Shown piece by piece: positions 25,603 through 26,828 of a stretch of DNA of 64,000 bases. Source of the DNA: Polyangium mundeleinium (GTDB lineage: Bacteria > Myxococcota_A > Polyangia > Polyangiales > Polyangiaceae); the NCBI RefSeq assembly GCF_028369105.1, contig NZ_JAQNDO010000001.1, forward strand, positions 1,907,711-1,971,710, in the 5' to 3' direction. The number at the start of each line of letters is the position of its first letter. The first letter of the stretch is position 1. The notes under the pieces are model-generated. The model was not told where the DNA came from and searched no databases. It saw nothing but the letters and a program-made list of their open reading frames with translations. The translations under genes were made by a program, and so were the position numbers.

Positions 25603-25640
25603 ACCGCCACGCGACCACGCCTCCAAGCACGATCGCATGC
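25603..25640. repeat. 38-bp direct repeat, copy 1 (duplicate of the TetR gene 3' end)
   Basis: cgcgaccacgcctccaagcacgatcgcatgcatcgccg is identical to 26753..26790. Confidence 0.9.
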
Positions 25641-25754
25641 ATCGCCGTCCAGATCACCCAAGTGCAGGTCGCGCATGGTTGAGGAAGCTCGTATGCAACG
25701 GGTCTCTACGGTATCCCTCACCAGATTGTCGAACTTGCGGATTCTGAGCGCGCC

Positions 25755-26828
25755 ATGCCCCTTCCCATCGCTACCTCCAAAGATGTCGGCCTCGTCGTTC
25801 GCCGCGGGATGCGTTTTTCCGTGAGCTTGGTCTCCGATGGCTGGCTCGTGGGTCCCTGCGTTCGGGATCTCGATGTCCAGATGCGCATGCGCGCAGATTT
25901 CTGGAAGTACCGGGGGTCGGATCGCGCGAGGTTTCTCGCGCCATACCGCCGGGCCCTCAAGGCCCTCGCCGCGGACGAGCCTGTCGTTCTCTGGACGTCT
26001 CCCTCGTGGGACGACCGGATCGCGCTCTGGGCGCTCTGCTTCCGCCGGCTTCAGCAAAGGCCCACCCAGCCGGATCTCTCGCTCGTTGTGGTGCCCGAGC
26101 ACAAGGAGCGGAACCCGGACATCAGCTTCGGCATCGGTTATGTCAGCCTGAAGCCCGCGGGGGCTCGTCGCGCGTGGGAGACCGTGCGTCCTCTATCGCT
26201 CCGCGAGGTCCGCGAAAAGGCGCTCTTCTGGAGAAAGCTCACGGCTTCCTCGCCGATCCTCTCAGGAAAAACCCTCCGCGAGACGCCATCACGCAAGGAG
26301 CTCTTCGAGATGGGCGCCTATCAAGCGGTTTTTTTTCCCCGGCTAGGCGAGTGTGGCCTTTCCCTTTCGACCCTGGACGCGCTCTTGCTGGGCTCGGTCG
26401 GCGAGACCCCCGCGACGCCAGCGGAAATCATTACGCGCGAGGGGGAAGAGGGCGAGCTACTCAAGTGGATGGACCGCACCGGAGACGTCATCCTCTTCGA
26501 GCGTCTCGTCCAATGGTCGAAGCACGAACCCGCCGCGTTCATCGCCGATCTGCATGGACAGCCCCACATGTGGCGCGCGCGCTACACGCTCACCGCCACC
26601 GGCCGCGCCCTCCTGCGCGACGGCCTCTCCTCGATCGACCAGGCCCCGCCGCTCCCGATCTGGGGCGTCACGGCCTACGATCCGCAGGATCCCTGGGTCG
26701 TCGTGGAGGAAGCCGGAGGGCGCCCCCATCTCCGGCGGCTCGGGGTTACTTCCGCGCGACCACGCCTCCAAGCACGATCGCATGCATCGCCGCGGAGAGC
26801 CGCCCGACCTCGTCGCGCTCTTCCATGA
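25755..26828 (+). CDS. hypothetical protein encoded within the direct-repeat-flanked insertion (possibly DUF1835/DUF3658-like)
   Basis: Long ORF with non-GC-artefact composition. No SD sequence, start uncertain. 3' end overlaps the convergent TetR gene. Confidence 0.45.
   Translation: MPLPIATSKDVGLVVRRGMRFSVSLVSDGWLVGPCVRDLDVQMRMRADFWKYRGSDRARFLAPYRRALKALAADEPVVLWTSPSWDDRIALWALCFRRLQQRPTQPDLSLVVVPEHKERNPDISFGIGYVSLKPAGARRAWETVRPLSLREVREKALFWRKLTASSPILSGKTLRETPSRKELFEMGAYQAVFFPRLGECGLSLSTLDALLLGSVGETPATPAEIITREGEEGELLKWMDRTGDVILFERLVQWSKHEPAAFIADLHGQPHMWRARYTLTATGRALLRDGLSSIDQAPPLPIWGVTAYDPQDPWVVVEEAGGRPHLRRLGVTSARPRLQARSHASPRRAARPRRALP

Follow-up and report, generated by a model that had tools for sequence, protein, structure and literature searches.

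Why should the 3′ end of a TetR-family regulator gene occur twice in Polyangium mundeleinium, on either side of a single open reading frame? The initial annotation of this window (the whole stretch of DNA analysed here, 64 kb in length) explained the arrangement as an insertion, by an unusual mechanism or by homologous capture, of a single gene flanked by a direct repeat. We compared the repeat, the DNA that it encloses and the neighbouring genes with the corresponding interval in other Polyangium genomes.

The repeat and its setting

The layout from which the question arises, an ECF-like sigma factor gene, an ORF at 25755..26828 (ORF357) and a TetR gene, is present as it had been described. 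Upstream of these genes lies a Ser/Thr kinase gene (15692-19597, plus strand), and between it and TetR stands a block at 19578..25600 that, according to blastn of orthologous loci and the gene table of one of them (Polyangium sp. y55x31), is variable; a Pfam scan of the ORFs of this block found no domains besides those of the sigma factor. The sigma gene (24563..25594, plus strand, stop codon TAG at 25592-25594; publicly annotated with a start 11 codons downstream of 24563) encodes a recognizable region 4 (Sigma70_r4_2, PF08281; E = 1.4e-6, 28.3 bits against a cut-off of 25.7) and a C-terminal extension with a hydrophobic stretch. Pfam detected no region 2, and the sigma protein scored below the cut-off of the NCBIfam ECF superfamily model (22.7 bits, cut-off 42.9); its orthologues in three Polyangium species are 76–81% identical to it. 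The TetR gene (26746..27372, minus strand) is intact, with an N-terminal helix-turn-helix domain well above threshold (TetR_N, PF00440; E = 3.7e-15, score 55.9 bits where 24 suffice); it has 208 codons from the first start, relatives being called at 194 aa, and is 97% identical to the P. fumosum orthologue. A consensus scan of 25400-27000 found no sigma-70-like promoter and no convincing terminator. Elsewhere in the window, a paralogue of the kinase gene lies at 9025-12490 (70% DNA identity to the P. fumosum kinase), and weaker partial matches to the kinase gene are found on the opposite strand at 39193-41338.

The repeat itself is, as claimed, direct and perfect over 38 nt (CGCGACCACGCCTCCAAGCACGATCGCATGCATCGCCG). 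It occupies 25610-25647 and, inside the working TetR gene, 26755-26792, as located by repeat search; the positions first assigned to it, 25603-25640 and 26753-26790, were 7 and 2 nt off, and the spacing they gave was wrong (the copies are 1145 nt apart, start to start). Only these two matches to the 38-mer exist in the window even at 3 mismatches, where 100 shuffles lead one to expect 0. At 1 mismatch the repeat grows to 41 nt (25607-25647 and 26752-26792), and the TetR-derived overlap comes to 47 nt if a diverged tail is counted. The repeat had been taken for the last 38 bp of TetR; it does come from the 3′ end of the gene, but when the end of the stop codon is taken as the first position it spans nt 10-47, comprising 12 full codons (AMHAIVLGGVVA) and 2 nt, and not the terminal 38. 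The final two codons and the stop differ between the copies, the right one encoding ARK before its stop (tail TTACTTCCG, then CGCGACC) and the left one AWR. Read on the minus strand, the left copy remains in frame (..AMHAIVLGGVVAWR) as far as a TGA stop at 25601-25603; on the plus strand its flank consists of the sigma TAG, TTTCGT, TCACCGCCA and CGCGACC, leaving 6 nt between the sigma stop and this TGA. An argument for dating the duplication, in which the T at position 13 of the 38-mer was taken to be specific to P. mundeleinium, was dropped because sp. y55x31 also has T there.

The interval in related genomes

Loci orthologous to TetR were obtained by a genome scan from P. fumosum (L003/L004), P. 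jinanense SDU13 (L005), Polyangium sp. 6x1, sp. 15x6 (L007) and one MAG, and the locus of sp. y55x31 (L018) was reached through its sigma orthologue. Both P. jinanense and sp. 15x6 have an uninterrupted stretch that corresponds to window 24511-25647 (blastn) and, from the last 41 nt of this match on, to window 26752-29469, so that in these genomes the sigma gene converges directly on TetR, with a single copy of the repeat. The locus of sp. y55x31 has the same form (sigma at 8001-9008, TetR at 9015-9599), and at all three sites the sigma stop is followed by a 6-nt spacer and a single-copy TetR end, TCAxCGCCG, leading into CGCGA. The empty site that the insertion proposal called for is thus found in three genomes, and two diverged copies in every relative, the pattern of an ancient duplication, are not what the relatives carry. 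Judged from sequence, the ancestral arrangement appears to be a sigma gene converging on TetR with 6 nt between the stop codons. The flank of the left copy (25601..25647, minus strand; aligned with sp. 15x6, P. jinanense, sp. 6x1 and sp. y55x31) matches the empty-site flank exactly, and this copy is therefore the TetR 3′ end of the original arrangement, which has kept its place next to sigma and is now dead. The right copy is part of the working TetR gene.

A second arrangement is found in P. fumosum, the closest relative (94–96% identity in the kinase gene). Its kinase-TetR interval lacks the sigma block and contains a 3.4-kb block made up of g247 on the minus strand and g164, cys179 (a gene for a Cys-rich lipoprotein) and an ORF homologue on the plus strand; identity to the window is 92–98% from the ORF start through TetR and beyond. 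The P. fumosum ORF ends in RLGEG and a stop, and after a 14-nt spacer comes the TetR end CTACTTCCG, continuing into CGCGACC and encoding ARK before the stop; the 3′ flank of the block supplies the last TetR codon (Lys) and the stop, and the penultimate Arg codon (CCG on the plus strand) is common to the sigma-type and cassette-type arrangements. The 38-mer occurs there once, with 2 mismatches. The 9-nt TetR tail of the right copy in the window (26746..26754, minus strand) is equal to this P. fumosum junction and differs from the TCAxCGCCG of the empty sites. Since the junction of cassette and TetR is common to P. mundeleinium and P. fumosum, it therefore arose once. At the left junction of the P. 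fumosum block, by the kinase 3′ end, a relic of the TetR tail was looked for and none was found.

The 1.1 kb between the copies is an insertion relative to the three empty-site genomes, as had been proposed, but not an insertion of a single gene: it consists of two gene relics, the DUF1835-type ORF without its stop and a 9-nt replacement TetR end, and all four match P. fumosum. The first relic (25647..25702, minus strand; blastn-short, alignment and tblastn) comprises the first 10 codons of g247 (MRDLHLGDLD, from 25676 down to 25647) and 26 nt upstream; 25651-25702 is identical to L003 4249-4300 at 46 of 52 positions (E = 9e-11, blastn-short), and the match reaches 25647 with synonymous changes. 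At 25647/25648, codon 10 of g247 is fused to the last base of the left copy with an overlap of 0–1 nt. The second relic (25712..25747, plus strand) is the last 11 codons of cys179 and its stop, YPSPDCRTCGF, recognized by alignment with the sequences upstream of the ORF at L001, L002 (P. jinanense GCA_028435365.1) and L003; the L001 paralogue reads YPSSDCRACGF. Neither g164 nor the remainder of cys179 was found in the window by tblastn. As g164-cys179-ORF is a conserved operon at five other loci and g247 is found in P. fumosum only, the insert is tied to the P. fumosum-type arrangement and not to a cassette from elsewhere. Searches of Pfam and NCBIfam assigned no significant family to g247, g164 or cys179, and PADLOC gave no defence-system match for ORF357 and its cassette partners. 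The junction also creates a 32-codon chimeric ORF (25578-25676, minus strand; MRDLHLGDLD-GDACDRAWRRGRVAVNETTPRP and a stop), which has the ATG of g247 as its start, runs out of frame through the TetR relic as far as the sigma 3′ end, with which it overlaps, and is probably meaningless.

The whole kinase-TetR interval is hypervariable among Polyangium species, in which it has at least four different contents. It measures 6–7.5 kb and includes sigma in three species, amounts to about 0.6 kb in sp. 6x1, is made up of the 3.4-kb block in P. fumosum, and has 6.1 kb plus the 1.1-kb relic in the window. Of the block at 19578..25600, P. jinanense, sp. 15x6 and sp. y55x31 have a rearranged version, whereas P. 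fumosum lacks it and sp. 6x1 lacks most of it. The genome and metagenome scans revealed no intermediate arrangement and no further alleles; the metagenome scan with TetR returned short contigs only, with no sigma, ORF or g247 beside TetR. The TetR stop codon has three independent breakpoints less than about 60 nt away: that of sp. 6x1 lies about 10 nt outside the stop, that of P. fumosum in the last two codons and that of the window at nt 47. Downstream of TetR, window 29100-29560 is kept in P. fumosum, while its alignment with P. jinanense, sp. 6x1 and sp. 15x6 is poor or fails altogether; it is another small interspecies indel or replacement.

Origin of the duplicated gene end

We consider the repeat to be a scar of recombination between two arrangements, rather than the footprint of a mobile element, with a probability of about 85%. 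By this reading, which draws on sequence comparison, the P. mundeleinium locus would be a chimera of the sigma-type and cassette-type arrangements of one hypervariable interval, and the repeat would be the overlap of a sigma-side TetR end with a cassette-attached TetR end, not a target-site duplication. Both parental arrangements exist, the sigma type at L005, L007 and L018 and the cassette type in P. fumosum (L003/L004). The sigma-type arrangement would extend up to TetR nt 47 and be joined almost bluntly to codon 10 of g247, whence the cassette-type arrangement would continue through the ORF into a complete TetR gene. The two boundaries differ in character accordingly: the right one lies in homology, the TetR 3′ end being present in both arrangements, and the left one, at 25647/25648, joins unrelated sequences with little or no microhomology. 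The 38 nt (47 with the diverged tail) would now be present twice because both partners carried the TetR 3′ end, and the intact TetR gene that the right copy preserves is probably why the recombination product survived. A simple tandem duplication was rejected, as it predicts the 3′ end of the ORF to the left of the left copy, where sigma stands instead.

As to the route, we would give even odds to a homology-anchored illegitimate integration, in which cassette-carrying DNA would integrate by homologous pairing in TetR and one illegitimate join. This could take place as homology-facilitated illegitimate recombination or as a single crossover with a circularized fragment, either of which would duplicate part of the anchor; small deletions would later have removed g164, most of cys179, and the stop codon and spacer of the ORF. 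Homologous capture, one of the two options first offered, comes close to this explanation, in which a target-site duplication made by unusual insertion machinery has no place. Such a route needs both arrangements in one cell, through exchange between close relatives or in an ancestor with both, and we infer the order of events, the genome and metagenome scans having found no intermediate genome. Further considerations count against it. The 38 nt are near the lower limit for efficient homologous pairing. The ORF357 protein is nearer to a paralogue located elsewhere in the P. jinanense genome (76% aa identity) than to the same-site P. fumosum copy (67%), and the history of the cassette therefore includes extra exchange among paralogues. 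Finally, the 100-nt repeat that flanks the L002 cassette could hint at a more regular insertion process.

Integrations of this kind have precedents. Homology-facilitated illegitimate recombination or single-crossover integration has been described in Acinetobacter, S. pneumoniae, P. stutzeri and E. coli conjugation, and integration through one homologous anchor often duplicates part of that anchor (PMC3240628). As in those systems, one side of the event seen here is homology-anchored, in the TetR 3′ end, and the other is nearly blunt; alternative DNA has been inserted, and part of the anchor is duplicated as a direct repeat. The duplicated length differs, however, at 38–47 nt here against 109–950 bp in the E. 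coli events (PMC3240628), and, unlike the experimental systems, the Polyangium case is known as an evolutionary end product, blurred by later deletions. Integration of this kind has also been put forward to explain sequential displacement arrays with retained relics, such as the orphan immunity genes of Vibrio T6SS and the orphan 3′ ends of Rhs and CDI loci (PMC5361080). There too a variable interval beside a conserved gene gains a module, and relics of the older arrangement, including the conserved gene end, are stranded alongside. In contrast to those arrays, the Polyangium locus has no sign of a toxin-immunity pair and displays one round of displacement, and it is anchored in a regulator gene of convergent orientation, at the 3′ end, rather than in the constant 5′ part of a toxin gene.

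Alternatively, one could envision an older duplicative integration that was later trimmed, an account that we find doubtful but that survives best among the rivals. The whole block would have entered beside sigma in the common ancestor of P. mundeleinium and P. fumosum, duplicating more of TetR than the present 38 nt and perhaps the entire gene. Subsequent losses would have taken from P. fumosum the segment bounded by the 3′ ends of the kinase gene and g247, and from P. mundeleinium everything between nt 48 of the extra TetR copy and codon 11 of g247, which would make 25647/25648 a later deletion joint and the 38-nt length accidental. The sigma block has diverged from those of P. jinanense and sp. 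15x6 (about 89% identity) to the same degree as its flanks, and the divergence of the cassette relics from P. fumosum is roughly what vertical descent predicts, so that both parts may indeed have been present in that ancestor; the repeat at L002 (100 nt, 92% identical) moreover shows that longer duplications of such a kind exist. Against this, 6 of 52 positions in the g247 relic differ from P. fumosum, whereas the TetR relic differs from the working TetR gene at 0 of 38 (1 of 41), where by a rough estimate a relic of that age should show about 3–4 changes. Because of this discrepancy (38/38 against 46/52) an older integration is disfavored, unless gene conversion homogenized the copies, and it requires one deletion more than the homology-anchored integration does.

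A repair event within the locus is unlikely, although several details of the junctions would suit it. In this account, the ancestor had sigma, the full cassette and TetR without any duplication, and a break occurred in g247; the sigma-side end primed on CCG microhomology at the junction of cassette and TetR, copied 38–41 nt and was then fused with the opposite end, by that time resected as far as codon 10 of g247, through a microhomology-mediated template switch or synthesis-dependent end joining. The copy does run in register from TCACCG into CC(A/G)CGCGACC, both junction contexts end in CCG, the second joint has an overlap of 0–1 nt, the template would have been only 1.1–2.5 kb away, and a perfect copy fits a recent event. 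Nevertheless, this in-register continuity follows more simply from a left copy that is itself the original TetR end, unaltered from its state at the empty sites, and it is mainly from eukaryotic end joining that templated insertions of such a length, about 40 nt, are documented. The scans also produced no genome of the intermediate form that break repair supposes.

We give very little credence to a mobile cassette with a long target-site duplication, in which the ORF, with or without its operon partners, would be moved by its own or a trans-acting enzyme cutting 38–100 nt apart. Its most specific version, in which a self-moving g164-cys179-DUF1835 cassette would owe widely staggered cuts, and hence the 38–100-nt target duplications in the window and at L002, to its DUF1835 protein, is as improbable; the 43-nt arrays found upstream of three cassettes might be part of such movement. 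Copies of the cassette do lie in different contexts in every genome, and the second cassette, at L002, is flanked by a 100-nt direct repeat. But the left end of the insert is a fragment of g247, which lies outside the conserved cassette, and the right junction is identical in P. fumosum, where no duplication exists. Across six loci we found no inverted or conserved cassette ends (flanks were not conserved, and promoter regions had weak promoter-like similarity only), and no flanking repeats accompany the cassettes at L001, L003, L019 and L020. Nor do the invariant columns of the ORF357 alignment, by inspection, include a Toprim-type Glu or a DxD motif, and DUF1835 is also known as a regulatory extension of ECF sigma factors.

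The familiar classes of element fit no better. A direct repeat flanks the insertion as it would a transposon or IS, but at 38–47 nt it exceeds the usual 2–14 nt, no inverted repeats pair the ends at 25648 and 26754, and these ends are gene fragments. The initial annotation had noted that no transposase or integrase is present, and Pfam bears this out: there are no transposase domains in ORF357 or in the ORFs of 19.6–25.6 kb and 27.4–28.0 kb, and no integrase or recombinase domains in the insert or its neighbors. Put to the test as a target duplication, the locus gave a single-copy target in three genomes, a repeat of 38–47 nt and a right junction common to the duplication-free P. fumosum. Integrative elements bounded by attL and attR are similar in that the insert lies between direct repeats taken from a target gene, at its 3′ end, and brings DNA that completes the reading frame of this gene again. 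Unlike them, however, this insert comes without an integrase and ends in a truncated neighbor gene, the P. fumosum cassette sits at the same site without an attL-like copy, and other cassette copies have no conserved attachment core: the 38-mer occurs once in P. fumosum, beside the same cassette, and the other cassette loci have unrelated flanks. Chance similarity or an assembly artifact can practically be dismissed, since 0 matches are expected by chance and the unique flanks of each copy are confirmed by independent genomes, the source contig being 13.2 Mb in length.

The locus thus offers a comparative-genomics case study of how a hypervariable interval is remodeled in a large myxobacterial genome. 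One illegitimate joint and a homologous overlap would have left a dead gene end, two gene relics and an ORF without a stop, with the TetR regulator intact. There is no new mechanism in this, only ordinary illegitimate recombination and decay in a variable region. For annotation, the case suggests that a 38-bp flanking repeat should not be read as the footprint of a mobile element until relatives have been checked.

The DUF1835-type gene and its cassette

The sole lead with wider potential is the uncharacterized DUF1835 cassette. The native part of ORF357 (25755..26744, plus strand, 330 codons) encodes a divergent DUF1835-domain protein, as judged from homologues, alignment, Pfam and structure, and retains 37 of 37 family-invariant residues. 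The ORF product is 100% identical to a P. mundeleinium protein encoded on the 13.2-Mb contig. Alignment of ORF 3′ ends shows that the native end, RLGEG with its stop, and the spacer are missing, leaving the region a net 22 nt shorter than in P. fumosum. Because the last two codons through the spacer are missing, ORF357 runs on into TetR antisense for 27 extra codons and a stop (26745..26828, plus strand), reading through the right repeat copy in a convergent overlap of 83 nt. The deposited protein (P0001) starts at an internal GTG and includes this tail, and caution is necessary in using it, as its 27 read-through residues are foreign to the family.

The initial annotation had suggested a comparison with the DUF1835 and DUF3658 profiles. 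ORF357 itself scores 11.9 bits against DUF1835 (PF08874; E = 0.25), below the gathering score of 21.1 bits. A family profile found 316 representatives, however, and 5 of the 10 distant members scanned do reach the DUF1835 gathering score (21.3–28.4 bits), so that membership follows by transitive homology; weak DUF1835 matches were also seen in 11 of 29 closer relatives. DUF3658 was matched neither by the window protein nor by the 29 relatives or the 10 distant members. The protein is predicted to contain a Toprim-like domain and a winged helix, resembling the cleavage cores of topoisomerases. The structural likenesses named for it are type IA topoisomerases and PadR/MarR regulators, for which Foldseek against the PDB gave weak matches only (E around 0.05), and a PDB sequence search with the family profile found nothing. 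DUF1835 has been noted in one paper as a C-terminal extension of ECF264 sigma factors, and a role in DNA binding or regulation is as likely as any for ORF357.

Two further features of the cassette loci were observed. At L002, a partly degenerate paralogous cassette lies between 100-nt direct repeats at 5084-5183 and 7093-7192; the repeat is not dispersed among the loci compared, and its right copy is placed as in the window, with the ORF stop on one side and, on the other, the stop of a gene for a histidine kinase that runs convergently. Just upstream of g164, three loci from different genomes carry tandem arrays with a period of 43 nt (L001 4433-4754, 7.5 copies; L019 4038-4353, 7.3 copies; L020 6623-6723, 2.3 copies), whose unit sequences differ by locus. 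As 43 is not divisible by 3, these arrays probably do not code for protein. P. fumosum has none, and the window lacks the region in which one would be sought.

ORF357 is also a mosaic. Its middle (window 25881-26580) has 82–92% DNA identity to the P. jinanense paralogue at L001 and only 45–83% to the same-locus P. fumosum copy (L003), to which its ends are 90–93% identical, a pattern that suggests gene conversion among paralogues. Another variable segment is common to the P. fumosum and L002 ORFs.
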